NCBI GenBank assembly: GCA_900290365.1
Contig: OMOE01000167.1
Coordinates: 6,305 to 70,304 of the forward strand
DNA from: Syntrophobacter sp. SbD1
GTDB taxonomy: Bacteria; Desulfobacterota; Syntrophobacteria; Syntrophobacterales; Syntrophobacteraceae
Direction: 5' to 3'
DNA length: 64,000 nucleotides
Under the pieces are notes generated by a model that was given only the letters and a program-made list of their open reading frames with translations, had not been told where the DNA came from and searched no databases. Numbering within the stretch: position 1 is the first letter of the stretch; each line of letters opens with the position of its first letter. The position numbers and the translations under genes are program-made. Below, piece by piece: positions 2 to 64,000 of the stretch.

Positions 2-502
2 CGAGACGTCTCCACACCTAGAGAAAAAAAGGAATCGTTGTACGGGCTCGTAGTGAGATCTCTTCCCTGGCAGATGGATTTCAAGAGATCCGGAGTGAGG
101 GTTTCATTGCTCATGCCGCTCGTCCTTGGAATACTTGTCGGGATTCTGGCTGCGATAATGGGCGTGGGGGGCGGATTCATCATGGTCCCGGTAATGGTTT
201 ATCTGCTGCGGATGCCGATGCACGTCGTCGTTGGAACAAGTCTGTTCCAGATCCTTTTTACCTGCGTCAATGTTACAATCATGCAGGCATGGAGGAACCA
301 CACGGTGGATTTCGTCCTGGCGCTGGTGCTGCTCATCGGATCGTCCATAGGCGCTCAGGTGGGGGCGAAGCTCGGCAAGAAACTGCGCGGAGACCAGCTA
401 AAAATACTGCTGGCCTCACTGGTGCTCGTGGTCATGTTCAAAATGCTCTATGAACTCCTGGCCCGGCCCGAGGTGCTCCTTGCTTATGTGGGAGGACATT
501 AG
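2..502 (+). CDS. TSUP (TauE/SafE, DUF81) family membrane anion exporter, C-terminal half; 5' end lies outside the window
   Basis: The frame is open from nt 2; the listed ORF merely starts at an internal TTG at 38. Multi-TM hydrophobic sequence with the GVGGGFIMVP motif typical of DUF81 repeats. Confidence 0.7.
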   Translation, partial: RDVSTPREKKESLYGLVVRSLPWQMDFKRSGVRVSLLMPLVLGILVGILAAIMGVGGGFIMVPVMVYLLRMPMHVVVGTSLFQILFTCVNVTIMQAWRNHTVDFVLALVLLIGSSIGAQVGAKLGKKLRGDQLKILLASLVLVVMFKMLYELLARPEVLLAYVGGH

Positions 503-504
503 AA

Positions 505-1272
505 ATGAAGACACTATACTTTTTCCTCCTTTTGGCCCTGGGCCTTTTAACAGTTTCAAATGCTGCCGCGCAGGACGCGGCCCGGTTGACGGTCGAGCCC
601 GCCGCCATCAGCATCGGGGCTCTATACAACGGCATAACTCTTACCGCTGCCGGATCGATTCCGGAGGATAGCGAAGCCATCGTCCGGTTTATCGGGGCCA
701 CCTGTGATTTGCACATGAAGGAGAGAGGCAAAGTGGGCGGCGTCGTGTGGATGAACCTCGATTCGATCACCTTCAAGGGCGCCCCCAGCGTCTGCCTGGT
801 TTCCTCGGCAGCCGATTTCAACGGCCTCGAAGCAAATGGAGGCGTCTCGGTAAAGCTGCTGAGGCTCTCCGGTCTCAAGGGAGCCATCCAGGTGGAAGCC
901 AACGGAGGCGGGCACGAAAATGCCGTTGAAGAGTTCCTGAAATTGAAACGGAAAGAAGGTCTGTACAAGGAGTTAGTAGGGAACATCTCATATGAGAGCG
1001 CAGTTGAAGGGCAGAAACGCTTCCGGGCGCAGGTCCCGATCCCCTCCCGCCTGGCCCCCGGCTCTTATATGGTCGAACTCGCTGCGGTTAGAAACGGCGA
1101 GGTCGTTGCGCGGGCTGAACAGCCGGTTGATGCGGCCCTGGTAGGGTTTCCGGCCATGTTGGCAGCACTGGCCTTCGAGCACTCGGCCCTTTACGGCATT
1201 CTAGCCACAATTATAGCCCTGCTTGCAGGCCTTGCGATCGGATTGATTTTTCAGAGCAAGGGAGCGCATTGA
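505..1272 (+). CDS. Membrane protein resembling the TIGR02186 family (signal peptide plus C-terminal TM helix), the usual neighbour of DUF81 genes
   Basis: ATG lies 2 nt after the upstream stop. N-terminal signal-like LLLALGLLTVSNAAAQ and C-terminal hydrophobic helix ILATIIALLAGLAIGLIF. Family assignment is from memory of the gene-pair context only. Confidence 0.5.
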   Translation: MKTLYFFLLLALGLLTVSNAAAQDAARLTVEPAAISIGALYNGITLTAAGSIPEDSEAIVRFIGATCDLHMKERGKVGGVVWMNLDSITFKGAPSVCLVSSAADFNGLEANGGVSVKLLRLSGLKGAIQVEANGGGHENAVEEFLKLKRKEGLYKELVGNISYESAVEGQKRFRAQVPIPSRLAPGSYMVELAAVRNGEVVARAEQPVDAALVGFPAMLAALAFEHSALYGILATIIALLAGLAIGLIFQSKGAH

Positions 1273-1290
1273 AGCAGTGAGCGGTGAACA

Positions 1291-3942
1291 GTGAGCAAAA
1301 CGATGAATGTCATTGACGGTCTGAGGAAGGTTTTTTCCTTCTGGTCGCCCACAAAGCCAAGTCTACCCTTTTCGGTGCTGTTTAAAAAGTTCAGGAGCAT
1401 CCTGGAGCGCAATAACCGGATCCTCGAACTTATGGCCGACATGGGTGACAAGCTCGGGGGCGAGTATGTCTTTGACCGTCAGTATGTTTTAGACATAAGC
1501 GAGAATATAGGAGATCTGGTCTTCAAGCTGATTTCAGACCTGTGCGTTATGACACAGACCGAGAATGTGGATCTTTTTATCTCATTCGAACGTATACAGA
1601 ACGACATCCAGGAGGAGCTGGCCGGAAGGCGTGCTTTTCCGATGATCAGGCCGGCGGTCCTGCTCGATGAACTCAACGGCGACCTCAATGAGGAGGTCGG
1701 AAACAAGTTCGCAAACATCGGGGACATCCGCAATACGCTGGGTCTGCCCACCATGGACGGGTTTGCTATAACGACCAGGGCATTTTTCGACTTCATGAAG
1801 GCAAACGGTCTTCTCAAGCACATAGAGACCTCTCTGGCAGCGGTGGACCTAAAGGATGAGACCGCGTTCGAAGCAATGTGCGATGATGTGCGCACGCGCA
1901 TTTTGAAGGGGACTATTCCCCGGCATGTAGTTTCAAGCATAAATGCCATGCTCGATGTCGTAAAGGGCAGAGCCGAGGTGAGATACCCGCGCTTTGCCGT
2001 AAGGAGCAGTGCCTGGGGCGAGGACAGCGAATTCAGTTTTGCCGGGCAATATGAAAGCGTGCTCAATGTCCCGGGGAATGGAATCGCGGAAGCCTACCGG
2101 CGGGTTATAGCCAGCGCCTACACGCCTGAGGCCTGGCGGTACAGGCTTCATCGAGGATTCCGGGAAAGTGAGATGGCCATGGCGGTCGGATGCCAGTTGA
2201 TGGTCGACGCCGAAGTCAGCGGCGCAATGTACACTTATGCCCCGCTTCCCCTTGAAAAGGAAGCCATGATGATAAGCGCCGCCTGGGGCCTCGGACCGGC
2301 AGTTGTGAGCGGTCTCGCCGAATCGGATACCTTCGTTTTGGACAGGATGCCACCACATAATATCCTTTCGAACGAGTCAGGGCACAAAGTGAGCAAAATG
2401 GTCATGGACCTGAACGGCGGCACGGCCTGGCGTGAAGTTCCCGGCCATCTGCAGGATAAACCGTGCCTTTCGGACGAATATATACAGAGGCTGGCCCAGG
2501 CGGCCATAATGATCGAAAGATACTACAGACGTCCCCAGGACGTTGAATGGGCCTTTGACAGCAAAGGCAATTTGTATATCCTCCAGTCAAGACCTCTCAA
2601 CGTTCGGCCGAACCAGCCGGACCGTCATCGGCTCTATATCGATCATGCGTCCCTTTCGGCGCAGGTTCTTTTTTCGGGAAAGGGCACCGTTGTACAGGGA
2701 GGTGTGGCGTCGGGAAAGGTCTATGTGGCCCGGGCAGATGATGATCTCAATGATTTCCCGTACGGGGCCATCCTGGTGGCCCGCTATACCTCTCCCAAAT
2801 ACTCCAAGATCATGCGCAAAGCCAGGGGCATACTAACCGACATTGGTTCGGCCACCGGGCATATGGCCACTTTGGCGCGCGAATACCGGGTCCCTACGGT
2901 GGTGGATACCGGAGTGGCCACCAAAGTTCTGAAGACGGGCGATGAGGTGACGCTGGATGCGATCCAGAACGTGGTCTACGAAGGAACGGTCAATGAACTG
3001 AGCCAATTTGAGATCACCCAGGAAGAGGTCTTCGAAGAATCGTATGAGTACCGGCTGCTAAAAAGGATACTCAAAAAAGTGAATCCCCTCAATCTGGTCG
3101 ATCCTCACAGCGAGTCTTTCAAGGCAGCCCGGTGCCTGACGTTTCATGACATCACACGGTTCGTTCATGAAAAAGCGGTTGAGAGACTCATAGATCTGAG
3201 CGAAAATTACCAGAACTATCACGACAGGACCCCCAAACGACTGGATTGCGACATTCCTCTGGGTTTGGTGATAATCGATATAGACAAGGGCACGAGCGCG
3301 CTTCCCGAGGCTCGGTCCATGACGGTCGAGCAAATTGAATCCGCACCCATGAAAGCGATGCTGCAAGGGCTTTCGGAAAGCGGAATGTGGGAAACCACCC
3401 CGGTTGCCGTGGACATGGGAAGCATGATGTCGAGCTTCACAAGAACTTTCAGCTCATCGCTGGCCGGCCCCGAGGATGTGGGCCGCAACCTGGCGGTGAT
3501 ATCGAACAACTACATGAATCTCCACCTTAGGCTCGGTTATCATTTCACCATCCTGGACGCCTACATTGGAGATGAACTCAACGATAATTACATTTATTTC
3601 CGGTTTCTGGGGGGTGTTTCAGATCTCCAGCGCCGTTCGCGCCGGGCCAGGTTTATAGCCGAGGTCATGGAGTGCTACGATTTCCGTGTCGAAGTACATG
3701 GAGATTTGATTGTGGGCAGGCTTAAAAAAATGTCCCGCGACAGGATGGTCTCGAGAATGAAGGTGCTTGGCGGCCTGATAGGTTATACTCGCCAACTCGA
3801 TATCAGCATGATAAGCGATGAACGGATCGGCCAGCATGTGGCCGAATTCATGCACAGAATTGACGTTCTTACGGAGGTGGGAGATGACGTCCCAATGTGC
3901 CGGCTGCCAGCAACAAAAGACGCAGATTCTTATACTCGATGA
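1291..3942 (+). CDS. PpsA/PPDK-like phosphohistidine enzyme, paralogue 1 (N-helical region + ATP-grasp + swivel His domain + unassigned ~300-aa C-domain)
   Basis: VRSSAWGEDSEFSFAGQYESVLNV and PQDVEWAFDSKGNLYILQSRP match the PPDK_N ATP-grasp. GSATGHMATLAREYRVPTVV is the PEP-utiliser mobile domain (His codon 2860-2862). I recognise no PEP/pyruvate TIM-barrel motifs in the last ~330 aa. Start is GTG 1291 or ATG 1303. Confidence 0.85.
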   Translation: MSKTMNVIDGLRKVFSFWSPTKPSLPFSVLFKKFRSILERNNRILELMADMGDKLGGEYVFDRQYVLDISENIGDLVFKLISDLCVMTQTENVDLFISFERIQNDIQEELAGRRAFPMIRPAVLLDELNGDLNEEVGNKFANIGDIRNTLGLPTMDGFAITTRAFFDFMKANGLLKHIETSLAAVDLKDETAFEAMCDDVRTRILKGTIPRHVVSSINAMLDVVKGRAEVRYPRFAVRSSAWGEDSEFSFAGQYESVLNVPGNGIAEAYRRVIASAYTPEAWRYRLHRGFRESEMAMAVGCQLMVDAEVSGAMYTYAPLPLEKEAMMISAAWGLGPAVVSGLAESDTFVLDRMPPHNILSNESGHKVSKMVMDLNGGTAWREVPGHLQDKPCLSDEYIQRLAQAAIMIERYYRRPQDVEWAFDSKGNLYILQSRPLNVRPNQPDRHRLYIDHASLSAQVLFSGKGTVVQGGVASGKVYVARADDDLNDFPYGAILVARYTSPKYSKIMRKARGILTDIGSATGHMATLAREYRVPTVVDTGVATKVLKTGDEVTLDAIQNVVYEGTVNELSQFEITQEEVFEESYEYRLLKRILKKVNPLNLVDPHSESFKAARCLTFHDITRFVHEKAVERLIDLSENYQNYHDRTPKRLDCDIPLGLVIIDIDKGTSALPEARSMTVEQIESAPMKAMLQGLSESGMWETTPVAVDMGSMMSSFTRTFSSSLAGPEDVGRNLAVISNNYMNLHLRLGYHFTILDAYIGDELNDNYIYFRFLGGVSDLQRRSRRARFIAEVMECYDFRVEVHGDLIVGRLKKMSRDRMVSRMKVLGGLIGYTRQLDISMISDERIGQHVAEFMHRIDVLTEVGDDVPMCRLPATKDADSYTR

Positions 3943-4285
3943 TGAGCCTATCGTGTGCAAGAGGCTCAGACCTGCTTTCCAAAAAGCGGGCTACGAGGTG
4001 GAAACCTTTACCGACAGCGCTTCCGCTATGGCCAGGATAGAGGAAAAGAAGTTCGATATCATCATTACCGACCTGAAGATGAAGGGCGTGGACGGAATGC
4101 ATTTTCTGGAGCGGATCAAGGAGATTGCGCCCGATACCGGCGTTATAGTCATAACCGGATTTGCCACCTCTGAAACTGCCGGGGAGTCATTCCGGAAAGG
4201 GGCATTCGATTTTGTGGCCAAACCGTTCAAGTTGAACGACATAATCGATACTGTCCGGCGGCTGGAGGGAAATCGGAAGAGATGA
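3884..4285 (+). CDS. Stand-alone CheY-like response regulator receiver domain
   Basis: ILILDDEP ... DIIITDLKMKGVDG ... VIVITG ... VAKPF supplies the acidic pair, phospho-Asp, T/S and Lys positions. GGAGGTG RBS lies 4-5 nt before ATG 3884. The gene overlaps the end of paralogue 1. Confidence 0.8.
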   Translation: MTSQCAGCQQQKTQILILDDEPIVCKRLRPAFQKAGYEVETFTDSASAMARIEEKKFDIIITDLKMKGVDGMHFLERIKEIAPDTGVIVITGFATSETAGESFRKGAFDFVAKPFKLNDIIDTVRRLEGNRKR

Positions 4286-4374
4286 AAGGGTTAGAAATGG
4301 TGGTTCGTACATAAAGACCCTTTTGCGTGATACGAAGAACGCCGCCGCCATGGAAGGCGGCGCTACCATGGTAG

Positions 4375-6897
4375 ATGAAAGTTCCTATGCGCCTTCCGTT
4401 CATCTCACACAGGCGACAGAAGCCTTCCTCCGATCAGGGGCTGGAATGGGTCCGATCCCTGTTTGCAAAATTCCAGCGTATTCAGAAATACAATACCAGG
4501 GCCTTGGAAGTAATGGCCGAAATGGACCGTGCCCTGGGCGGAGAGTACATTTTCGACCGCGCCTTCCTTGAAAGCTCCGTTCGAGAGTTGAGCGGTCTCG
4601 CATACCAGGTTGTCTACAGCCTGAACGCCATGTCGCAGAACGGATACGTCGCTCTCTACGACAGGTATCAAAGCATAAAAGGCGTTCTGGATGACATCCT
4701 TGCCGGGGGACTGGGACCTTTTGGATCGAGTCTTGCCCTGCCGTATTCAGTACTTGGCCTTGAAATGGAGCCTCTGGCGGGGGCCTTGAATGTGTGCCTG
4801 GCCGAGGCGCGAAATCGCCTGGACATTCCCGCCCCCGACGGCTTTGCGGTGACGGTGACCGGCTGCTCGCAAATGATGGCCGCAGGCGGGGGGGATTTTG
4901 ATATTTTTGCTAAACCGGCGTCGCTCGAGGTTGCTGATTTCCCCCCGGAATTGGTCGAGGCGATTAACCACCAGATGGAGTCGCTGTTTGCAAGATGCGG
5001 AGGCCCGGTTCCTCTGATCGTGAGAATCTGTCCGGCTGCCGCAAACAACCAGACCCGGACCGAGACGGTCCGGCTGCCCTCGCAGGTGTTTACCAACGTT
5101 GGCTCCGATGAACTCCTGGAAACCTGCCGAATGGCCCTGGACAAATATTTGGCTTCATCCGAAGGACCCGATCCCGCGCCGGTGGCCCTGGCGGTCCATG
5201 AGGCTGTGCCCGCCCAGGTTGCCGGCTCAATTTCTCTTGTGACTTCGCCCGATTCGCCTTCGGGAGGACTTTTTTGTATAACGGCCTGGCCGGTGGGTGC
5301 GCCTGACAGCAGGGAGACCTTTTTTCTTCGCCGGACCTACCCATTCGATCCCGTTGAATCGGAAATCAAAGCGAAACCTTACAACGAGCGGATCTACCCC
5401 GGTGTGCATCCCCTGTCGATCACGCCAAAAGGCCTCTACAGAGGTTCTGCCCTCCTTGGTCCCTCTTTTCTCAGGGGCATTGCGGCATGCGCCTCGGCTT
5501 TTGAGCGGATTGTCGGCTGCCCCCAGGATCTCGATTGGGTCAGGGGCGATGCCGCGCGGCCGGTTATAGTGAATGTGAGGGCGGCGGGCGAGCTTGACGG
5601 TTCGATGGAGAGCGATTTCGATGCGCCGTTTTCCGAAGAGGAGGATGAGGGAAATTGGGTCGAGGACGCCGAGGTGATGCTTGCCGGGGGTGAGACCGCG
5701 CAGACGGGTATAGCAGCCGGTCCGGTGGTACATGTTCGTGAAAGCGAAATGGATCTGTTCCCCCATGGCGCCGTCGCCGTTGTCAGATATGCATACCCCA
5801 GTTTGAGCGCCATCATGAGCAGGGCTTCCGCTGTAGTGACCGAAATCGGCGCCTCCATCGGGCACCTGGCCACAATAGCCAGAGAACTGCGCATACCCGC
5901 CATCTTTGGCGCCGCAGGGGCAATGCAGAGATTGCCTGAGGGGACCGAAGTCACAGTTGACGCCGGGGAAAAGAGGGTCTACCGGGGGATAGTCGAGCCT
6001 CTGTTGGCCTCCCGGGCAACCGGCACGGAACTGTATCCGAGCGATCCGGAATACGTTACACTCCGCCGCCTGCTGCGCTGGATATTGCCCCTGGAACTCA
6101 TCGATCCTGAGTCCAGTACTTTTTGTGTGGATAATTGCCGCACTTATCACGACGTTATTCATTTTTCCCACGAGAGATCCATTGAGGAACTTCTAAAGAT
6201 CCAGGAGCACGGCGCCGGGCTGAAAAGTCCGTATGTTCGCAAACTCGGGATCGATACGCCGATCGATCTGTTCGTGCTCGATATTGGCGGCGGGGTGTCC
6301 CCGGGGGCCGGGGCTTGTGTGGAATTCGATGACGTCATTTCAAAGCCGTTCCTTGCATTCCTTAATGGGCTGACCCTCAAGGAAGTCTGGAACCGGGACC
6401 CGGGATCCCTCAACCTCAGAGGAATAATCTCCGGGCTTGACCGTACGTTTTCGGCCATGATGGAACTGCCTGAATACGCCGGCAGAAATCACGCAATCCT
6501 GGCGGAAAACTACATGAACGTCGGCCTTCGGCTCGGTTATCATTACAGTGTGATCGACAGCTATCTCTGCGGCAATGTAAATCAAAATTACGTCTATTTT
6601 CGTTTCGCAGGCGGTTTTGCCGATGAGAATCACCGGCGGCGCAGGGCTGAGCTTATAAGGTCTATCCTGGACCAACTGGGCTTCAAGGTGAGAATCAAAG
6701 GCGATCTCGTTCTGGCAAAGCTCAAACTGGTGGACAACCGGGAGGTAATCTCGGCATTAAAGGTCCTGGGAGAGCTTACGGGATTTACCCGGCAGATTGA
6801 TCTTGCGATGGACTCGGAAGATAAAATTGAAGAATTCGCCAGGCTATTCAATGAAAAATCCGGCCGCGCAGGCAAAGAGGAGAAAAACGGTGTCTAG
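4375..6897 (+). CDS. PpsA/PPDK-like paralogue 2 with a degenerate ATP-grasp but an intact swivel His domain and the shared C-domain
   Basis: GASIGHLATIARELRIPAIFG (His codon 5863-5865). C-domain NYMNVGLRLGYHYSVIDSYLCGNVNQNYVYFRFAGG parallels paralogue 1. The ATP-grasp signature positions read PLIVRICPAAANNQ and CPQDLDWVRGDAARPVIVNVRAAG. Confidence 0.75.
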   Translation: MKVPMRLPFISHRRQKPSSDQGLEWVRSLFAKFQRIQKYNTRALEVMAEMDRALGGEYIFDRAFLESSVRELSGLAYQVVYSLNAMSQNGYVALYDRYQSIKGVLDDILAGGLGPFGSSLALPYSVLGLEMEPLAGALNVCLAEARNRLDIPAPDGFAVTVTGCSQMMAAGGGDFDIFAKPASLEVADFPPELVEAINHQMESLFARCGGPVPLIVRICPAAANNQTRTETVRLPSQVFTNVGSDELLETCRMALDKYLASSEGPDPAPVALAVHEAVPAQVAGSISLVTSPDSPSGGLFCITAWPVGAPDSRETFFLRRTYPFDPVESEIKAKPYNERIYPGVHPLSITPKGLYRGSALLGPSFLRGIAACASAFERIVGCPQDLDWVRGDAARPVIVNVRAAGELDGSMESDFDAPFSEEEDEGNWVEDAEVMLAGGETAQTGIAAGPVVHVRESEMDLFPHGAVAVVRYAYPSLSAIMSRASAVVTEIGASIGHLATIARELRIPAIFGAAGAMQRLPEGTEVTVDAGEKRVYRGIVEPLLASRATGTELYPSDPEYVTLRRLLRWILPLELIDPESSTFCVDNCRTYHDVIHFSHERSIEELLKIQEHGAGLKSPYVRKLGIDTPIDLFVLDIGGGVSPGAGACVEFDDVISKPFLAFLNGLTLKEVWNRDPGSLNLRGIISGLDRTFSAMMELPEYAGRNHAILAENYMNVGLRLGYHYSVIDSYLCGNVNQNYVYFRFAGGFADENHRRRRAELIRSILDQLGFKVRIKGDLVLAKLKLVDNREVISALKVLGELTGFTRQIDLAMDSEDKIEEFARLFNEKSGRAGKEEKNGV

Positions 6898-9566
6898 CAT
6901 CGTCGCTCGATTGTTTCAAAAATTGCGCGAGCGGCGGCTGACTCGTGCGGCAAAATTCCTTGACGACCTCAAGGTCCGGTATCACACTTTCCGGATTCTC
7001 CTTGCCAATAATGAGTACTCGCTGGATCTGATGAGGTCGCTTGACCTGTCACTGAGGTCCGGGAGTTCCGAAATGCCGGAGATAGCCGAAGAGCTTCTAA
7101 GCGTCACCTACGAGCTTGTCGACGGTCTGAACAGGCTGAGCGGGGACCGTCACCAAAGACTTTATGAAACGCATTACAGCCTTGCGGGTGCTATCCGCAA
7201 CGAACTGGACGCCATCATGGCGGTCCAGTCCCATGCGCCGGCTTTTGTTTTCCTGGATCATCCGGCAGCCGATCTGCGGGAAGAGGTCGGAGGCAAGGCT
7301 GCCGGCCTGGCCCAGTTGCGCAAGGCCGGCTTTCCCGTTCCTGACGGTTTTGCCGTTACGTCGAACTCCTGCGAGGGAATACTATCGGCCAACGGTCTCG
7401 ATCTTTTTATTCGGCAGAGGGCGCAAAGACTGGAGGCCGGGTACAACCGAGGCACGGACTTCGAGGCTGACGCAGAGGAGATTCGCCTCCGCATTCTCGA
7501 CGCGGTTTTTCCGCAAGACTTCGAACAGGAGCTTCGGCGCGCTTACGAACGGCTCACCGGTTCGGGGGAAACGGCCATATCCGTGCGCAGCAGCGCTTCG
7601 GTCGAAGACCGGATTGAACACTCCTTTGCCGGTCAGTTCAAGAGCATACTTAACGTGATTTCATTCGATGGATTGAAGGACGCGTTAAGGGAAGTGATTG
7701 CAAGCAACTACAGCCCCGGGGCGATTTCCTACCGCCTTCACGCCGGACTGTCCCTGGCCAGGCACGACATGGCCGTTTTATGTCAGCGGATGATCCGGGC
7801 AGAGTCGGCAGGGATACTGTTCACTATAGATCCGGCAGACCCGGAAAACGGGCGGATGCTTATCAGCGCCGTTCCCGGGCTGGGAATAACGGCCGTGAGC
7901 GGGAGCGCTCCGGCGGATCTCTACCGGCCCTCGAGGGAACCAACAGACGCAGGCCCGATGGCGGATTGGGCGCAAGTTGCCAAAAAGACCCACCGCGCTG
8001 ATCCCGGGTTTAATGGAGGCATCGAGGAGCGGGAGCTTCCCGAAAATGAACAGGTCCTCCCCGTGCTTTCCGAGGACCGGGTCCACTCCCTCGTTAGCAT
8101 CGGCCGCCGGATCGAAAGCCTGGTCGGAAAACCGCAGGATATCGAATGGGCATTTTCGCAGGAAGGCGAGCTTGTGATCCTGCAGTCAAGGGATATCCGG
8201 CTTGCCCTCAAAAGCAGGCAGGCAGCGGAGGCTGCGCGGGGAGAAGTCCTTCTTAGAGGAGGGGTATGCGCCTCGCCGGGCCGGTGCGTGGGCAAGGTCA
8301 AAGTAGTTCATTCGACCCGTGATTTTGAGGACTGGCGTAAAGATCCTTCACGCGAGCCGGGTATCCTGGTGCTTCCACAGAGTATGTCGGATGCCGCAGG
8401 CTTCGTCCCGGAATTCGAAGGCGTGGTTGTGGATTTGGGCAACCCTGCCGATCACCTGGCCGTAACGGCAATTCGAAGGCGTGGTTGTGGATTTGGGCAA
8501 CCCTGCCGATCACCTGGCCGTAACGGCTCGGGAGTACTCCCGTCCGATGATGACCGGGGCCGGTAAGGCGACCCAAACGCTTCGGGACGGCCAGTGGGTT
8601 ATCCTGGACGCGGACATGGCCATGGTCTTCAAGGCCCCCGAGGAGGCCTGGTCGGCCGCCCAACGGGTTGGCAACGCTAATATGGAAGGCGGTTCGCAAA
8701 CCCGCAGGGCCGGGCGCAATGTCGCCTCACGCCCAGAGGCAGCCCGGCTCAGACAGTTGATCGAGCCTTTGAATCTGACCGACGCATACGGGCCAACGTT
8801 TTCCATACAGGAGTGCCGCTCTCTGCATGATCTGATCCGCTATAGCCATGAAATGGCTGTCCTGGCAATGTTCCAGACCGGAGACGACATCCTGGAGTCG
8901 GCGGAGGTGCTGGTGCGGCGACTCGAGGGCGCCGTACCGCTGCATTTCCTGATTATCGATCTGGGCGGCGGTATCGCTTCTGAAAGTAATAAGTTCAGGG
9001 TCCGGCTTGAAGATATCCTGTCGCTCCCCATGCTGGCGCTCTGGAAGGGGATACTGACGCCGGGGCTCAGATGGAACCTGCCGCCCCCCGCAGCCATGGT
9101 TTCCGGGCTCATGTCCCGATCCATGTTCGACTCGGGCAGCGCCAGGCCCATCGGCCAGCAGAACTACGCCTTGATTACACGGGATTATCTGAATCTGAAC
9201 GCGCGCGTTGACTATCATTTCGCCATGGTTGACGCGGTTTGCGGATCAAATCCGAGAGAGAACCATATCCGTTTCAGGTTCAAGGGGGGCGGGACGACCG
9301 CTGTGCAGCGCGAGCGGCGTGCGCTGTTCATAACCGAAGTGCTCGAAGCGAACAATTTTTTTGTAGACCAGCGGGGCGACCTGGTGACTGCGTCCATCCT
9401 GGAAACACAGCAGTCTGAAACCGAGGACCGGCTTGTCATGCTGGGAAGGCTGCTCGGATTTAGCAGGCTGCTCGATGCGACCATGCGCGACGACACCGTC
9501 CACAAAAAAGTGGCGCGTGCGTTTATTGATGGCGATTATGCGCTGACAACAGTGGGTCAGGAGTGA
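6890..9566 (+). pseudogene. PpsA/PPDK-like paralogue 3, split into two ORFs (to 8566, and 8481-9566) by a 58-bp tandem duplication
   Basis: VRSSASVEDRIEHSFAGQFKSILNV, PQDIEWAFSQEGELVILQSRD, GNPADHLAVTAREYSRPMMTG, and C-domain DYLNLNARVDYHFAMVDAVCG..NHIRFRFKGG. A GTG at 6890 overlaps the stop of paralogue 2 (GTGTCTAG), with GAGGAG 7 nt upstream. Deleting one 58-bp copy joins the frames (frame arithmetic checked) into one ~872-codon ORF. Confidence 0.8.
8412..8527. repeat. Perfect 58-bp tandem duplication (8412-8469 = 8470-8527)
   Basis: Read directly: aattcgaaggcgtggttgtggatttgggcaaccctgccgatcacctggccgtaacggc occurs twice with no mismatch and exactly 2.0 copies. The flanking bases differ. Confidence 0.97.
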
Positions 9567-10222
9567 TAGAAACGCATCCTGGGCAGTTCTACGGCAGTGA
9601 GCATGTTTCCGTAGGCCGCCCCCGTGTCGATGCCGATCTTGCCTGGCGCAACGAAAGGCGTCTCGAAAGGGGTGTGGCCAAAGACGGTTACCTCGCTTGA
9701 AGTGCTTTCGTCTTGTAAAAATATGTCCCGCACGCTCAGGAGACGATCCAGCGGGCAGTGCTCGAGGTCCTCTCCGGGTATAGTCCCCGCGTGGACAAAA
9801 AGATAGCCGCCCAGCCTGAAGTGTGGCTGGAGCCTTTCGAGAAAACGGATATGTTCGACCGGCATAAAGGATAAATCCCCCAGGGATCGAACCGGGGCGT
9901 TCGAGTAGCTGTTCAGGGTATCCTCCACACCGATGGATCGAAGCGTTCTCAGATAATCGAGATTGCCCGTGCGGGAATACTCCAGCAAAGCATGTTCGTG
10001 ATTTCCCATCAGGAAAACCGTGTTTCGAACCTTTCCCCCTGTCTTCAGAAGATAATCGATCACCTCACGCGATCCGGTTCCCCTGTTAATGTAGTCCCCG
10101 AGAAAAACCAGGTAATCCTTCTCCGGATCGATGGGCAACCGCTCGATCAGAGAGGTGAGCTTTCGATTGCAGCCGTGGATGTCGCCAACCGCGAATATCT
10201 TCTGTTCCGCAAAAAGGTTCAT
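9557..10222 (-). CDS. Calcineurin-like metallophosphoesterase (PrpA/ApaH-type Ser/Thr phosphatase or Ap4A hydrolase family)
   Basis: Motifs GDIHGC, GDYINRG, GNHE and VHAG in canonical order. The 3' end overlaps the stop of paralogue 3 by 10 nt (convergent). Confidence 0.85.
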   Translation of the reverse strand: MNLFAEQKIFAVGDIHGCNRKLTSLIERLPIDPEKDYLVFLGDYINRGTGSREVIDYLLKTGGKVRNTVFLMGNHEHALLEYSRTGNLDYLRTLRSIGVEDTLNSYSNAPVRSLGDLSFMPVEHIRFLERLQPHFRLGGYLFVHAGTIPGEDLEHCPLDRLLSVRDIFLQDESTSSEVTVFGHTPFETPFVAPGKIGIDTGAAYGNMLTAVELPRMRFYHS

Positions 10223-10475: not shown

Positions 10476-11051
10476 TCAGATTCTCATCGTCACATCGCGG
10501 CTCCATGTCTGACGGTACTGGGCAGCGGCCTGCTGCGCTACGGTGGCGTCTTCGATCTTCCCCCCGGCTGCAAGCTCACCTGCAAGGACAAATGGAATGA
10601 TATCGCTCAATTCCACGATAAAGGGAGTAAGATCGGTCATGTGCCGTTGGGCCATCGAGGCGATTTGGGTTTCATCGAGGGCCAGCGCCGTCGTTTGCAG
10701 CATCCCGTAGCTGATGACCGCCATATTGAGTAAAGTGTAATCGTCCCTGAGATTTTTTGAAACCGGCTCATTTGATCTAAGTTTTCCGTAGATGTTCGCA
10801 AAAGATCCCACAACCGATGTTGCCGCCTTCTTCAGCCTGGCTTCAAAATTCCCATCGAGTGTTGACAGATTTCGTTCAAGTTCGGCTACATGCGTTGTTA
10901 ACGCCGCATCGATTCTTTGAAGGGCTCCCAGGGCATTGTTAAACTTCCTTAGTCGTTCATCGTGGACCTGGCGCTCGATGCGTTGAAGGGCAAGTTGTTC
11001 GACGCCCAGCATATCGGCCAGATTTTCCCGAAGTACTTCCGATCCCGTCAT
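10476..11051 (-). CDS. Hypothetical all-helical protein, possibly ferritin-like (DUF892/YciE-type)
   Basis: GGAGG RBS 6 nt before the ATG. The helical pattern resembles YciE-like proteins, but the match is weak and by eye only. Confidence 0.45.
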   Translation of the reverse strand: MTGSEVLRENLADMLGVEQLALQRIERQVHDERLRKFNNALGALQRIDAALTTHVAELERNLSTLDGNFEARLKKAATSVVGSFANIYGKLRSNEPVSKNLRDDYTLLNMAVISYGMLQTTALALDETQIASMAQRHMTDLTPFIVELSDIIPFVLAGELAAGGKIEDATVAQQAAAQYRQTWSRDVTMRI

Positions 11052-11507
11052 TGCAGACCTCCAATGGTTATTCTTCTATTTTGGCTAATTCATTCGAATT
11101 ACAGACATTTGTTTTGTAATTTAAGCAGCTTTGCGCAAAAGGAAAGCAGAGGGGCAGATCACCGTATCCCACTCGAATGAGAATTTCTCGCGCGAAGGCG
11201 CGATTGACAACCCGGCCGCAACCCATCGATTCGTTCGAGGGGCCACGGTCGATCTTGAGCCGCGAAGAGGGAGCCCAAATCAATATCCTTGTGCCCCCCT
11301 TCATTGGGTTTGAGAAACTCAATTTTTCTGTCGCTAAATCAGAACAGCTTAGAGTCGCCTTTGAGGAAATCGCTCCGCCCTTATTGAAGCCCGCAGCCCC
11401 CCTTCGTTTACAATAGCCTACATATAATTACCTTAAATTAAACGGACTTGGCTGTCTCTGCCGTCAATGGGACAGTGTAAACGTTAACCTCCAGGGAGGG
11501 TACTTCG

Positions 11508-12017
11508 ATGTACAGCAAAGTTAAAATCATGGGACACCCAGTTCATCCCATGCTGGTGAATTTTCCGATCGCCTTTTACGTCTCGACCCTGATCGCGTTC
11601 ATTATATACAGCATTTTCGGCGACCCATTTTGGTTCTGGGTAGGTCTTGCGGCAAACTTCGCCGGAGTTGCGATGGCGTTTGTGGCGGCCACTTTCGGGT
11701 TTATCGACTGGACGTTCGGCATTCCGTACGGGTCGGCTGCTAAGGATACCGGCGCAAAACATATGTTGCTCAATATTGTTTCGCTCCTGTTGTTCATAAC
11801 CTGTTTGATCCTAAATGCCGGCCAGTGGAATGCTATTCTACCGGTTGCCAGGGGGATCGTTATCTTACCTCTGTTTGGGGTAATTTTGACAATCGGCGCG
11901 GGCTATTTCGGGTGGACGCTGGTGCAGAACCATCACGTCGGGGTTGAGTTCTCGCCCGACGAAGAACGCTGCATAAGTGAATCGCGATCCGCTGGATTTA
12001 CCAGAGACACGGTGTAG
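11508..12017 (+). CDS. DUF2231 domain membrane protein
   Basis: N-terminal GHPVHPMLVNFPIAFY signature, four predicted TM helices, GGGAGGG RBS. Confidence 0.75.
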   Translation: MYSKVKIMGHPVHPMLVNFPIAFYVSTLIAFIIYSIFGDPFWFWVGLAANFAGVAMAFVAATFGFIDWTFGIPYGSAAKDTGAKHMLLNIVSLLLFITCLILNAGQWNAILPVARGIVILPLFGVILTIGAGYFGWTLVQNHHVGVEFSPDEERCISESRSAGFTRDTV

Positions 12018-12147
12018 GCTTGAGTGCACAATGTAATCTATTTATTTTCAACGACAGAGGCATTAATTTTGTCTGACGTTCCCATAACGAGGGGGACCTG
12101 TGGCGAAAGCATTTTCGGCAGTGGCAATTCAGAAACTGTAAAACCAA

Positions 12148-13803
12148 ATGAGCCTCTCTCTAGATGCCAGACATTTGAAACGTTACAGGGAACTTGCCGG
12201 ATTTCTGATCAAGTACGGGCGCTCAGATATATTTTTTCGGGCCGGGCTTGAAAAAGTGCTCGATGAACAGCCTGCTGCCGAAAGGGTCAGCCCCGGGGCG
12301 GAAGAGCTTCCCAAAGACCTGGAGAAGATGGGTCCCACATACGTAAAACTGGGGCAGTTCCTTTCCACCCGCTCCGATCTGCTGGAGCCCCAATATATTG
12401 AAGCCCTCTCTCGCCTTCAGGACAGAGCCGAATATTTTTCTTATGAGAAGGTCGAGTCAATTATTACTTCCGAGCTGGGGCTGCCCGTAGCCAGGCTGTT
12501 TTCCTTTTTCGACAAGACGCCTCTTGCCGCCGCTTCCCTGTCGCAGGTCCACCGGGCTATCCTTCTTGACGGGCGCTCCGTGGCCGTAAAGGTCCAAAGG
12601 CCCGGCATCCGCGATCAGATAGCCCTGGACCTCGATGTGCTCCTCGAGTTGGCCGGATTTCTGGACAGACATATCGACGTGGCTAAGAGGTTTATGCTCC
12701 AGGAGACCATCGAGGAATTCCGAAAAGCGCTTGTCCAGGAACTCGATTTCAAGGAGGAAGCTCAGAACCTGGTGATACTCTCGGAGAACCTTGAAGAATA
12801 CGAGAAAATTGTGGTGCCGTTGCCCGTCCATGCCTATACTACCTCGAAAGTGCTCACCATGGAACATATCCGAGGGCAAAAGATTACAAGCATACATCCC
12901 CTTGGCAGGCCTGAAATCAACGGGCACGAACTTGCCGATGAGCTGTTCAGTGCGTACCTCAAGCAAATCCTTATCGATGGGTTCTACCACGCCGATCCGC
13001 ACCCCGGAAATGTGTTCCTGACTGACGATGGGCGTCTGGCATTGATAGATTTGGGTATGGCCGCCCGCATCTCCGACGGTATGCAAAAAAAGCTTCTCAG
13101 GTTCACCCTGGCTATAAGCGAGGGCAAAACCGATGAGGCCGTCCAGTATGCGATTGAAATCGGCGAAAAGACCCCTGCTTTTGACGAGCAGGCCTTTGGC
13201 AAACAGGTGCAGGAATTCATAACGCGCTGGCAGAGGATTAGAATCGGGCAAATGGAGATCGGCCGGGTCATCCTGGAGGTGCTCAAAGTGGCGGGAACCA
13301 GCGGTTTTCGTTTCCCGGCCGAACTGGCGATGCTCGGAAAGTGCATGCTAAATCTCGACAATATCGGCCGAACTCTGGACCCGGCATTCGATCCGAACGC
13401 GGCTATCCGCAGGCATGCCGGAAAACTCTTAAGGCAAAGGCTTTTAAAGAGGCTGTCGAGCGCCACCCTTTATAAAATGGCCATGGAGTCGGAAGAACTG
13501 GCTGAAAATTTCCCTCAAAAGCTCAGAAAGATAATCGACATCTTCGCCGACAACGATTTCAGGGTCGGCGTCAATGCTATTGATGAAAAATACCTCATGA
13601 GGATGTTCCAAAAGATCGCCAACCGCATTGCGATCGGGATTATAATAGCGGCCATCATTATCGGGGCAGCAATACTAATGCGTGTGGAAACCCCCCGGTT
13701 CACGCTTTTCGGGTATCCAGGGCTGGCAATAATTTCTTTTCTCATTGCCGCCATAGGGGGACTTATATTCGCAATCGTAATGTTGATAAAAGACGAAAGG
13801 TAG
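12148..13803 (+). CDS. ABC1/UbiB (AarF) family atypical kinase with C-terminal TM helices
   Basis: GPTYVKLGQFLSTRSDLLEPQYIEALSRLQD, AAASLSQVHRA, VAVKVQRPG, HADPHPGNV and IDLGM. Confidence 0.85.
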   Translation: MSLSLDARHLKRYRELAGFLIKYGRSDIFFRAGLEKVLDEQPAAERVSPGAEELPKDLEKMGPTYVKLGQFLSTRSDLLEPQYIEALSRLQDRAEYFSYEKVESIITSELGLPVARLFSFFDKTPLAAASLSQVHRAILLDGRSVAVKVQRPGIRDQIALDLDVLLELAGFLDRHIDVAKRFMLQETIEEFRKALVQELDFKEEAQNLVILSENLEEYEKIVVPLPVHAYTTSKVLTMEHIRGQKITSIHPLGRPEINGHELADELFSAYLKQILIDGFYHADPHPGNVFLTDDGRLALIDLGMAARISDGMQKKLLRFTLAISEGKTDEAVQYAIEIGEKTPAFDEQAFGKQVQEFITRWQRIRIGQMEIGRVILEVLKVAGTSGFRFPAELAMLGKCMLNLDNIGRTLDPAFDPNAAIRRHAGKLLRQRLLKRLSSATLYKMAMESEELAENFPQKLRKIIDIFADNDFRVGVNAIDEKYLMRMFQKIANRIAIGIIIAAIIIGAAILMRVETPRFTLFGYPGLAIISFLIAAIGGLIFAIVMLIKDER

Positions 13804-14470: not shown

Positions 14471-15007
14471 TTACTTCACAATTCCGATGACGCCGCAAGC
14501 TGCTCGCGCGCCTGATCCGCCCGTCGGTTGGGTTTTGAAATCATCGGCCCCGGCATGAACGATTACCGAACGGCCTATTATCGATTCCGGCCCTGCGAGC
14601 CTTATGAGATTATCTGTTACTTCAAGTGTGGCCACGCCGTTTTTGTCTGCTTCGATGTTGCCCAGATCGCCGACGTGACGCATTTTGGAATTCGGACCTG
14701 CGTGGGGCATATCAGTGGGATTGAAGTGACCGCCTGCGGAATTTGCGTCGGGCGAAGTGCAGTTTCCAAACTCGTGAATGTGAAACCCGTGCGGACCAGG
14801 TGACAGGCCCTCAATGCTTGCCATGATTCGAACCCCGCCTGCGTCCTTTTTAAAGCTCACAACCCCATGTACTTTGCTGCCTTCCGTAGGGTTCATAACG
14901 GCGACCGCCTGTGTAACTTCAGATTCGGCAATCTTTCGGGAACATCCGGTAAGGGCCACCCCCAAAATGAGTCCTGAAAGCAGCACACCTTTGACAATTT
15001 CTTTCAT
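14471..15007 (-). CDS. sodC: Periplasmic Cu/Zn superoxide dismutase (lipoprotein signal)
   Basis: LTGCS lipobox, HGFHIHEFGNC, GGHFNP, HVGDLGN and GGSGARAACGVIG. Confidence 0.92.
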   Translation of the reverse strand: MKEIVKGVLLSGLILGVALTGCSRKIAESEVTQAVAVMNPTEGSKVHGVVSFKKDAGGVRIMASIEGLSPGPHGFHIHEFGNCTSPDANSAGGHFNPTDMPHAGPNSKMRHVGDLGNIEADKNGVATLEVTDNLIRLAGPESIIGRSVIVHAGADDFKTQPTGGSGARAACGVIGIVK

Positions 15008-15220: not shown

Positions 15221-15344
15221 CCGCATTCCGCCGACCTGTTCGAGGGGCGAACCCTCACCTTGTTCGGGTTCCGCGTTAAACGCCGCATTCCGCCGACCTG
15301 TTCGAGGGGCGAACCCTCACCTTGTTCGGGTTCCGCGTTAAACG
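15221..15344. repeat. Perfect 62-bp intergenic tandem duplication (15221-15282 = 15283-15344), with a degenerate partial third unit near 15390-15420
   Basis: ccgcattccgccgacctgttcgaggggcgaaccctcaccttgttcgggttccgcgttaaacg occurs twice with no mismatch. Confidence 0.95.
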
Positions 15345-15605
15345 TTCGAACCTACGTTAGACGCTTATAGTTCGGCGTCTGATCTTAAGCCCTCACTTCG
15401 TTCGGACTTCGCGTTAGCCATTGCTGAGCGCGTTTAAATGCTTCAAGCTTGGCGTCCGATCTTCTGTGAGGACGCGTGAGGACGCATGGTCGATCTTGAG
15501 GCACACAAAGGGGAAATCTTTTGAAATTGATACGAATTATTTTTCAATTTCTTCATGCTCTTCGTGTATCCTCCGTGCTCTTCGTGTCCAAAAAAGGAAC
15601 TTGAG

Positions 15606-16094
15606 ATGGCCAATTCAAAAATCAAGGGAACAGCACTATTTTTCATCCTGGCAAGCGTCCTGGCCGCACTCGATCAGCTTTCGAAATACTACATCGTCTG
15701 CGCTATTCCCCTGAACACCGGGATCAATGTAATCCCCGGGTTTTTTAATCTGGTTCATGTTCATAATTCGGGGGGGGCTTTCAGTGTTTTTGCCGGTTCG
15801 GGATATCCCTGGAAGAGGTATCTCTTCATTGGCCTGACAGTGGTGGTGGTGGCCGCAATAGCCTACGCTTACGGCAAAACGGGTAAAAAGGATAACTGGA
15901 CCCGAATCGCATACGTATGCATTGCCGGCGGGGCAATGGGGAACCTGATCGATCGGATTAGATTAAGCGGCGAAGTTGTCGATTTTCTGGATATCTACGT
16001 TGGGAAATGGCACTGGCCGGCCTTCAATGTGGCCGACGCCGCCATTTCTACGGGCGCGGTAATGCTGCTGGTCTCGCTTATGAGAAAAAAGTAA
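15606..16094 (+). CDS. lspA: Lipoprotein signal peptidase (signal peptidase II)
   Basis: FFNLVHVHNSGGAFS, GNLIDR, VVDFLD and WPAFNVAD. ATG 15606 with an AAGGA RBS; the upstream part of the listed ORF runs through repeat DNA. Confidence 0.9.
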   Translation: MANSKIKGTALFFILASVLAALDQLSKYYIVCAIPLNTGINVIPGFFNLVHVHNSGGAFSVFAGSGYPWKRYLFIGLTVVVVAAIAYAYGKTGKKDNWTRIAYVCIAGGAMGNLIDRIRLSGEVVDFLDIYVGKWHWPAFNVADAAISTGAVMLLVSLMRKK

Positions 16095-63341: not shown

Positions 63342-64000
63342 GGTTTTCTCAATAAAAGCAGAAGAATCGCAATCAGAACGGCAGCCAACACTGCCCCTCC
63401 GTATATCAGCAGGTTATTCCGCTTGGTGGGGAGGACAGCGGCCATCGGCGGGTCGGGTTCATTCACCCATTTGAGGTCTGCCGGGTCGGGTTCATTCACC
63501 CATTTGAGGTCTGCATTTTCAGGAAAGCGCAAATCATTTGCCATCTGCTCCGCCGAGTCGTAGCGTTCATCCTTTCTTCTGCGCAACGCTCTGCGAATGG
63601 CCGCCCATATCCCTGGATGCAAACCTTTTACCCCCGTGAGCGGTTCAGGGTCTTTGGTCATGTGCAGGTACATGACCGTCAGCGGATTATCCCCGGTAAA
63701 CGGAGGAGATCCGCTTAAAAGGTTATACATGAGGCAGCCGACTGCATAGATATCGCTTTTTGCAGTGCCGCGTTCTCCTTTGATCTGTTCGGGGGCCATG
63801 TATTCGGGGGTCCCCATGAGACCCGAAAAACCGCGCCAGGTAACCCGGGGCGCCCCTTCCATGAGCGCGATGCCGAAATCGAGAATTTTCAAATGGCCAT
63901 CCGGGCCCAGCACAAGGTTTTCCGGTTTTATATCACGGTGATACACTCCCCTTTCATGGCAGTAGTGTAGCGCATCCAACAGGTTTGCCACTATCTTTAC
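63338..64000 (-). CDS. Hanks-type Ser/Thr protein kinase, C-terminal part with TM anchor; 5' end lies outside the window
   Basis: HRDIKPENL, ILDFGIA, GTPEYMAPEQ, and a C-terminal TM LLIYGGAVLAAVLIAILLLLL. The frame is open to nt 64000. Confidence 0.9.
   Translation of the reverse strand, partial: VKIVANLLDALHYCHERGVYHRDIKPENLVLGPDGHLKILDFGIALMEGAPRVTWRGFSGLMGTPEYMAPEQIKGERGTAKSDIYAVGCLMYNLLSGSPPFTGDNPLTVMYLHMTKDPEPLTGVKGLHPGIWAAIRRALRRRKDERYDSAEQMANDLRFPENADLKWVNEPDPADLKWVNEPDPPMAAVLPTKRNNLLIYGGAVLAAVLIAILLLLLRKP
63449..63514. repeat. Perfect 33-bp in-frame tandem duplication inside the kinase gene
   Basis: 63449-63481 = 63482-63514, giving ADLKWVNEPDP twice in the juxtamembrane linker. Confidence 0.95.

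Follow-up and report, generated by a model that had tools for sequence, protein, structure and literature searches.

Three consecutive genes of Syntrophobacter sp. SbD1, here called g1, g2 and g3, may encode enzymes of the "X, water dikinase" type that carry a new acceptor domain and are placed under two-component control through a CheY-type receiver; we give this reading, taken as a whole, an even chance of being right. The genes lie at positions 1291-9566 of the window, a stretch of 64,000 nucleotides (nt) from a metagenome-derived genome. Members of the g1 family are publicly annotated as "pyruvate, water dikinase" or "PEP/pyruvate-binding domain-containing protein" (PEP, phosphoenolpyruvate), and this annotation is misleading. 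We found no characterization of the family in the searchable literature, and it is not mentioned in the literature on TIGR02186/PF09608, PF01326/PF00391, Desulfovibrio sigma-54 regulons or the D. vulgaris response-regulator map. A defence system was also considered as the identity of g1-g3 and was dropped, as a PADLOC scan gave no defence-system match for these genes.

The products of g1, g2 and g3 have a common layout, composed of a three-helix N-terminal domain (N-domain), an ATP-grasp, a swivel domain with its histidine (swivel His) and a C-terminal domain of ~300 amino acids (aa; C-domain). The front part of these proteins is similar to PpsA. PEP synthases in PDB (9dae, 2ols and 8a8e) align with g1 residues 121-572 only, in one contiguous block, and the NCBIfam PpsA models align to about profile position 470 of 798, ending at the swivel domain. 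Against the PpsA equivalogs, g1 scores 333 bits with NF005057 (cut-off 598) and 323 bits with TIGR01418 (cut-off 740). The PEP/pyruvate barrel, PF02896, has no Pfam match at E<0.01 in any of the three proteins.

The C-domain itself has no sequence match in Pfam, NCBIfam or PDB, where only chance matches were returned (E 0.02-0.9 in PDB). An AlphaFold2 (AF2) model built from a 41-sequence alignment (pLDDT 80, pTM 0.72) shows a long helix, then antiparallel hairpins and helices, and no beta-alpha barrel. Foldseek searches with this model gave 0 matches at E<=1e-3 in PDB and in BFVD, and chains of PpsA, PPDK, Enzyme I and RPH were absent among the 50 PDB matches listed. The weak top matches (a fold like that of type III secretion system chaperones and YbjN, Arp2/3 p34, and the C-Ala domain), with query-based TM-scores of 0.1-0.2, were set aside. 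A C-domain profile searched against 1.84 billion representative proteins identified 1554 clusters at 50% identity. Judged from these sequences, the C-domain is tied to one architecture, because it forms the C-terminal end of ~800-890-aa proteins in the full-length matches listed. According to the model, the PEP/pyruvate TIM barrel is replaced in g1-g3 by an alpha/beta domain of ~300 aa that has no detectable relatives. The N-domain (the first ~125 residues) is modelled as three long helices (pLDDT 79), for which the Foldseek matches were all generic helical bundles at E>=1; an identity as an HPt-like domain or as the HPr-binding domain of Enzyme I received no support from that search and was set aside.

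An earlier note on this DNA, made from the sequence alone, had stated that the C-domain is not the PEP/pyruvate barrel and had predicted matches to PF01326 and PF00391 without a match to PF02896. The model, the Pfam searches and the null Foldseek result in PDB agree with both statements, with the PPDK_N match of g2 falling below the cut-off. The note had also placed a PPDK_N-type ATP-grasp in each gene; this holds for g1 and g3 but not for g2, which has lost the catalytic residues. The features of the locus are as follows (window positions in nt).

38-502, plus strand: 3' part of a TauE/SafE (DUF81, TSUP) permease gene that begins before the window (Pfam TauE 4e-26)
505-1272, plus strand: gene for a TIGR02186 / Alph_Pro_TM protein (Pfam PF09608 3e-37)
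1291-3942, plus strand: g1, 883 aa (Pfam PPDK_N 2e-82, PEP-utilizers 1e-20)
g1 aa 1-125, plus strand: three-helix N-domain (structure model)
1690-2625, plus strand: g1 ATP-grasp, aa 134-445 (Pfam)
2758-2961, plus strand: g1 swivel domain, aa 490-557, with His524 (codon 2860)
3013-3939, plus strand: g1 C-domain, aa 575-883 (model; no family match)
3884-4285, plus strand: CheY-type single-domain receiver, 133 aa (Response_reg 3e-30), with Asp63 (codon 4070)
4375-6897, plus strand: g2, 840 aa (PEP-utilizers 3e-16; PPDK_N 22.7 bits, below the 27-bit cut-off)
about 4771-5664, plus strand: g2 ATP-grasp, degenerate
5758-5967, plus strand: g2 swivel domain, intact, with His497 (codon 5863)
6007-6894, plus strand: g2 C-domain, intact
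6890-9566, plus strand: g3, ~872 aa once repaired (PPDK_N 1e-71, PEP-utilizers 5e-8)
7280-8221, plus strand: g3 ATP-grasp, predicted live
8412-8469 and 8470-8527, no strand: two copies of an exact 58-bp tandem duplication spanning the phospho-His codon of g3
8453, plus strand: codon of the g3 swivel His, with a second copy at 8511
8628-9563, plus strand: g3 C-domain
9557-10222, minus strand: PPP-family metallophosphoesterase, convergent (Metallophos 6e-17)

Related loci were collected by a pattern scan of one genome per species, which yielded at least 586 matches, each confirmed by tblastn. Counts of gene context rest on the best 80 of these matches (named by numbers such as L001), which belong to Syntrophobacteraceae, Desulfovibrionaceae, Halodesulfovibrio, Desulfobulbaceae, Desulfobacteraceae and Desulfatiglandaceae. 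Residue conservation was assessed in an alignment of 75 g1, 34 g2 (the window copy and 33 orthologues) and 35 g3 sequences from the window and the 80 related loci; enzyme positions are given in g1 numbering.

The g1 and g3 classes keep every conserved position of the ATP-grasp: K139, R238-S-S, E244-D, FAGQ250-253, Y284-R285, E419, Q432 and R434. We take these positions to be the nucleotide and Mg ligands of PPDK. Catalytic residues of the grasp are present in 97-100% of the sequences of these two classes, and K139, R238, E419, Q432 and R434 of g1 in 99-100%. The g2 class has lost K139, RSS238-240, ED244-245, FAGQ, YR284-285, E419, Q432 and R434. The swivel His is conserved in 100% of g1, 100% of g2 and 94% of g3 sequences. 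In the C-domain, a set composed of C615, H619, D620, H626, E627, D663, N733, Y741, N743, H751, D756, N766, R771, G774-G775, R784-R785, D805, R834 and D837 is kept at 88-100% in all three classes, and the sole class-specific change is at R623, which is always His in g2. Within-class identity of the grasp is 0.31 for g2 versus 0.45 for g1 and 0.49 for g3, and this fast change in g2 is confined to the grasp, its N, swivel and C domains remaining constrained. Given the losses in the grasp together with the invariant His and the conserved C-domain, the g2 ATP-grasp is, on the residue evidence, catalytically dead, and g2 is therefore a predicted pseudo-ATP-grasp paralogue with a working arm and third domain. 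The proposal in the earlier note of a hetero-oligomeric dikinase gains plausibility from this combination of a dead grasp with an invariant His and a conserved C-domain, and from the rarity of g2 without g3.

One helix of the C-domain carries the spacing C-x3-H-D-x2-R-x2-H-E, which places Cys, His, Arg and His on one face. With the four invariant Arg residues of the sheet, these helix residues look like a metal- and anion-binding active site.

The gene order tauE-TIGR02186-g1-cheY was found in 80 of 80 related loci with enough flanking sequence. The TauE gene precedes the TIGR02186 gene in all of them, and cheY lies directly 3' of g1 in every locus having downstream sequence, overlapping g1 in Syntrophobacteraceae. 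The g2-g3 pair is present in roughly half of the related loci, and both states occur within Syntrophobacteraceae. Only two loci that had room for g3 (L029 and L055) contain g2 without a following g3. A PPP phosphatase gene follows g3 in 29 of 36 g2-g3 loci and is found in 0 of 21 g1-only loci. Thus, g2-g3 is an optional add-on module, and the phosphatase travels with it. The conservation of the neighbourhood, a subject raised in the earlier note, is accordingly general for the adjacency of the receiver and limited to about half of the loci for the arrangement of the paralogues.

In the relatives, the region upstream of that corresponding to the window start encodes a HAMP-HisKA-HATPase kinase and an NtrC-type sigma-54 activator, followed by usp. 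All three genes are conserved in related loci, and the activator orthologues are 56-80% identical across orders. A TGGCAC-N5-TTGC motif occurs upstream of usp/tauE in 43 of 66 loci (background 0.038 per kb). The sigma-54 promoter and its cognate activator are seen in related loci; the equivalent region of Syntrophobacter sp. SbD1 lies before the window start.

The receiver belongs to the claims of the earlier note that were upheld: it overlaps the end of g1 and has the complete D-D-D-T-K set. Across the 70 loci in which receiver conservation was judged, this set is kept together with the DDEP, TDLKM, ITGFAT and KPFK motifs and much of the surface. No HisKA/HATPase domain was detected by Pfam in g1-g3. 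The alpha-1 helix of CheY (IVCKRLKPAF..GYEVETF) is similar to that of the receiver of the cluster activator (VCRRLSxAL..GYEVEAF), with an identity of 0.50; unrelated receivers of the NtrC type encoded in the flanks reach about 0.12-0.33. In L068, the kinase gene directly precedes tauE-TIGR02186-g1-cheY, there is no activator, and CheY is the only response regulator beside the kinase. The alpha-1 likeness and the layout of L068 fit a conventional branched system, in which one kinase would serve both the activator and CheY, and we conclude from these sequence features that the cluster kinase probably phosphorylates CheY.

We propose the following mechanism. The g1-g3 proteins would be phosphotransferases with a swivelling histidine that derive from PEP synthase, in which the barrel has been exchanged for the ~300-aa alpha/beta domain and the three-helix N-domain has been added. 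By analogy with the class mechanism of PpsA, PPDK and RPH, the ATP-grasp would pyrophosphorylate the swivel His (His524 in g1), and the gamma-phosphate would be released. The swivel domain would then swing to the C-domain and pass the beta-phosphoryl group to a putative acceptor, probably an anionic one. This acceptor may be held by a pocket made of the helix residues C615, H619, D620, R623, H626 and E627 and, on the sheet side, N733, Y741, H751, D756, N766, R771, G774-G775, R784-R785, D805, R834 and D837. Where the add-on module is present, g3, with the only live ATP-grasp of the module, may act in trans and charge the g2 His, in the manner of two-component dikinases. The core operon would be (usp)-tauE-TIGR02186-g1-cheY throughout Desulfobacterota, transcribed from a sigma-54 promoter under the control of a histidine kinase and an NtrC-type activator encoded next to it. 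This kinase would phosphorylate both the activator, which controls operon transcription, and CheY, whose phosphorylated form would modulate g1 post-translationally.

The substrate is likely linked to the cargo of the TauE/TIGR02186 membrane pair, and a sulfur oxyanion is one lead. The literature gave a single experimental lead, three proteins with consecutive locus tags. During thiosulfate disproportionation by Dissulfuribacter thermophilus, a "phosphoenolpyruvate synthase" (DITHS69_1988) is up with a log2 fold change (log2FC) of 3.4, together with a "transmembrane protein co-occurring with TauE" (DITHS69_1989, log2FC 1.8) and TauE (DITHS69_1990, log2FC 1.6), and the authors interpreted the PEP synthase as evidence of gluconeogenesis (PMC13490349). 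In the same paper, the protein A0A1B9F8F1 bears the tag DITHS69_1988 in Table 2 but DITHS69_1161 in the running text. Should the former be correct, A0A1B9F8F1 adjoins the TauE pair, and its interpretation as a gluconeogenic enzyme was probably a misreading.

Several points weigh against the proposed scheme. Neither a kinase nor an activator was found in the ~20 kb fetched around the match in L011 and L012, where CheY still stands beside g1. The similarity of the alpha-1 helices could reflect shared ancestry instead of a shared kinase, and the C-domain might serve protein docking or regulation instead of catalysis. Finally, the Dissulfuribacter protein is a putative member of the g1 family with two locus tags in use, so that it is a lead and not evidence.

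Other explanations have to be weighed against the same data. In a phosphorelay, which the earlier note had put forward as a route from His to Asp bypassing histidine kinases, g1 would autophosphorylate His524 from ATP and pass the phosphoryl group to Asp63 of CheY, docked by the C- or N-domain, and would represent a new type of histidine kinase. The constant adjacency of g1 and cheY, their overlap in Syntrophobacteraceae, the full competence of CheY as a receiver and its persistence in L011 and L012, with no kinase found in the fetched flanks, all agree with such a relay. The chemistry is feasible, because receivers can phosphorylate themselves with small phospho-donors and with phospho-imidazole. 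However, the cluster has a conserved classical HisKA kinase, the alpha-1 helix of CheY resembles that of the other likely partner of this kinase, and, with the layout of L068, the receiver can thus be explained without a relay. We know of no member of the ATP-grasp/swivel-His class that phosphorylates a receiver. In addition, ~20 conserved polar or charged residues of the C-domain, present also in g2 and g3, exceed the needs of a docking surface, and no second receiver was seen beside g2 or g3 in the g2-g3 loci examined. The relay is weakened by these observations and appears rather improbable. A broader version, in which the g1 family is an ATP-driven phospho-His donor with a non-carbon target, either feeding CheY directly or acting with TauE/TIGR02186 as a trap, similar to a phosphotransferase system, that phosphorylates a sulfur oxyanion or another transported anion, is a similarly improbable idea. 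If true, it would link energy status to the handling of sulfur compounds in sulfate reducers and disproportionators.

The C-domain might alternatively bind and phosphorylate a protein (Usp, loops of TauE/TIGR02186, or another), with the PPP phosphatase removing the mark. Consistent with this, a PPP-type phosphoesterase related to the protein phosphatases PrpA, PrpB and PrpE accompanies g2-g3 in most loci, and usp and membrane-protein genes are conserved in the operon. We nevertheless regard a protein dikinase of this kind as distinctly unlikely. The phosphatase is not part of the core, because it is absent from all 21 g1-only loci, and its score as an ApaH-type dinucleoside-polyphosphate hydrolase is just as good; its NCBIfam matches to ApaH, PrpE and Ser/Thr-phosphatase models are all below cut-off. 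Besides, small molecules or glucans are the substrates of the swivel-His dikinases known so far. PPDK-type reactions are reversible, and it is conceivable, if unlikely, that the enzymes run in the reverse direction, converting a phosphorylated metabolite, AMP and phosphate or pyrophosphate (PPi) to ATP, like PPDK of anaerobes, or supplying AMP and PPi to the APS-reductase/ATP-sulfurylase branch. The hosts, which are energy-limited sulfate reducers, syntrophs and disproportionators, suit this proposal, as does the induction of the putative Dissulfuribacter member in thiosulfate disproportionation (PMC13490349); but it is purely inferential, the sequence gives no direction of the reaction, and that protein is a putative member only, as noted above. 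That g1-g3 are ordinary PEP synthases, with a C-terminal barrel too diverged for recognition, is scarcely credible. The public annotation and the closeness of the grasp and swivel domains to PpsA speak for it, whereas the absence of PF02896, equivalog scores far under their cut-offs with matches that end at the swivel domain, a modelled fold of antiparallel meander and helices, and Foldseek results in PDB with no match at the threshold used and no PpsA, PPDK or Enzyme I barrel among those listed speak against it.

The structure of the individual genes was as described in the earlier note: three genes on the same strand with one architecture, of 883 and 840 aa and, for g3, ~872 codons without the duplication, with the His codons, the junctions and the open reading frames (ORFs) all confirmed. 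In NCBI, a Syntrophobacter sp. SbD1 protein that begins at ATG 1303 (879 aa) matches g1 with 100% identity. An 18-nt gap separates the end of the TIGR02186 gene at 1272 from g1. The receiver ORF opens at 3818, and ATG 3884 has GGAGG ~7 nt upstream; the latter is most likely the start, and the receiver gene and the g1 end overlap by 59 nt. GTG 6890, the start of g3, overlaps the g2 stop, with GAGGAG 7 nt upstream, and the convergent phosphoesterase gene overlaps the g3 end by 10 nt. The TauE piece in the window aligns to Pfam profile positions 120-237 only, and the orthologue in L028 is full-length (311 aa). The TIGR02186 protein reads as having a signal peptide, an extracytoplasmic part of ~200 aa and one C-terminal membrane helix. 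A search for TIGR02186 homologues aimed at alphaproteobacterial contexts returned close relatives only.

As sequenced, g3 consists of two ORFs, 6797-8566 and 8481-9566, and dropping one copy of the 58-bp duplication gives a single open frame of about 873 codons from GTG 6890. The window carries three exact two-copy tandem duplications (58 bp at 8412-8527, 62 bp at 15221-15344 and 33 bp at 63449-63514), and the g3 orthologues of the close relatives L002, L003, L005, L010 and L016 each give one unbroken alignment. Because of the number of such duplications in 64 kb and the intact orthologues, the 58-bp duplication is probably an artefact of assembly (contig joining), and we treated g3 as an intact gene. 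A real split gene or phase variation was rejected as the primary reading in view of the two further exact duplications in the window, for which the pattern suggests an origin in contig joining as well. The 62-bp duplication is flanked by genes for a periplasmic Cu/Zn superoxide dismutase (14471-15007, minus strand) and signal peptidase II (15555-16094). Between the phosphoesterase gene and this region, positions 10476-13803 contain a 190-aa ORF without a family match, a DUF2231 membrane protein (11508-12017) and an ABC1/UbiB-type atypical kinase (12148-13803). These neighbours are probably not part of the system, because they are kept only in the closest relatives (L006, L010 and L019).

Some related loci contain additional genes. 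In at least 13 g1-only loci, mostly of Desulfobacteraceae type, cheY is followed by a conserved 320-aa protein without a Pfam or NCBIfam match and then by a tandem-Usp protein; examples are L074 (11218-14617), L048, L049, L054, L058, L068, L076 and L080. A second HAMP-HisKA kinase, 71-73% identical to the L074 kinase, occurs in five loci (L049, L054, L058, L069 and L075). In L068 (noted at 319-4375, minus strand), the operon headed by the kinase adjoins TrkH/TrkA potassium-uptake genes and a CitMHS/Na-sulfate-symporter-like transporter with TrkA-C domains. Extra diverged g1-like copies, 30-53% identical, were found in L039 (11679-16089, minus strand), L051 (120-1901) and L037 (2296-4863); the copy in L039 adjoins a second TauE-like gene on the opposite strand, and that in L037 lacks the TauE/TIGR02186 pair.

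The family is large and phylogenetically wide, as indicated by the number of tblastn-confirmed matches and C-domain clusters given above. Its uniform annotation as PEP synthase misleads reconstructions of metabolism in sulfate reducers, syntrophs and sulfur disproportionators, as when gluconeogenesis is deduced from proteomics. In biochemical terms, the family adds a new putative acceptor domain to the swivelling-His dikinases and, in g2/g3, a natural pair of pseudo-enzyme and enzyme. It also reveals an unusually tight link between a dikinase-like enzyme, CheY and the poorly understood membrane pair of TauE and TIGR02186, and naming the acceptor could reveal a new phosphorylated metabolite or regulatory step in anaerobic sulfur or energy metabolism.

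Among known systems, PEP synthase and PPDK share with g1-g3 a PPDK_N grasp followed by a PEP-utilizers swivel domain with a catalytic His, and PpsA provides the best PDB and NCBIfam matches of g1 residues 121-572. Unlike these enzymes, g1-g3 have an extra three-helix N-domain, and their genes stand with a receiver gene in a regulated operon for membrane proteins. They also lack the PF02896 barrel, which places them outside the PEP synthase/PPDK family. The dikinases of the RPH type (RPH, PigC/RedH and flavonoid phosphate synthetase) likewise combine an ATP-grasp and a swivel His with a non-barrel acceptor domain, and the grasp of g1 is similar to the RPH model (212 bits, below the cut-off of 999). 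However, the order in RPH is grasp, substrate domain and C-terminal swivel domain, whereas in g1-g3 the swivel domain directly adjoins the grasp in the middle of the protein; g1 aligns with RPH chains in two pieces and with PpsA in a single one; and the g1 C-domain has no fold match to RPH structures in PDB. Since both domain order and acceptor fold differ, g1-g3 do not belong to the RPH family. The rifampin-phosphotransferase logic invoked in the earlier note is thus compatible with the architecture of ATP-grasp, swivel His and non-barrel domain, while the domain order is that of PEP synthase.

In HpeHI and PpsAB, an ATP-grasp polypeptide charges the swivel His of a separate polypeptide with the substrate site (PMC12167813). 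HpeHI, CreHI and the phenylphosphate synthase PpsAB thus set a precedent for charging in trans and may serve as a model for the action of g3 on g2. They differ from this pair in that g2 and g3 are full-length paralogues and g2 keeps a dead grasp, that the acceptor domain is unrelated, and that there is no context of aromatic catabolism. The cluster of the related loci resembles branched two-component systems, in that a stand-alone receiver is encoded together with the HAMP-HisKA-HATPase kinase and the NtrC-type activator, and the two receivers have alpha-1 features in common. In contrast to such systems, the receiver here is fixed beside a dikinase-like enzyme in all loci examined, which points to the enzyme, and not a motor or another kinase, as its target.

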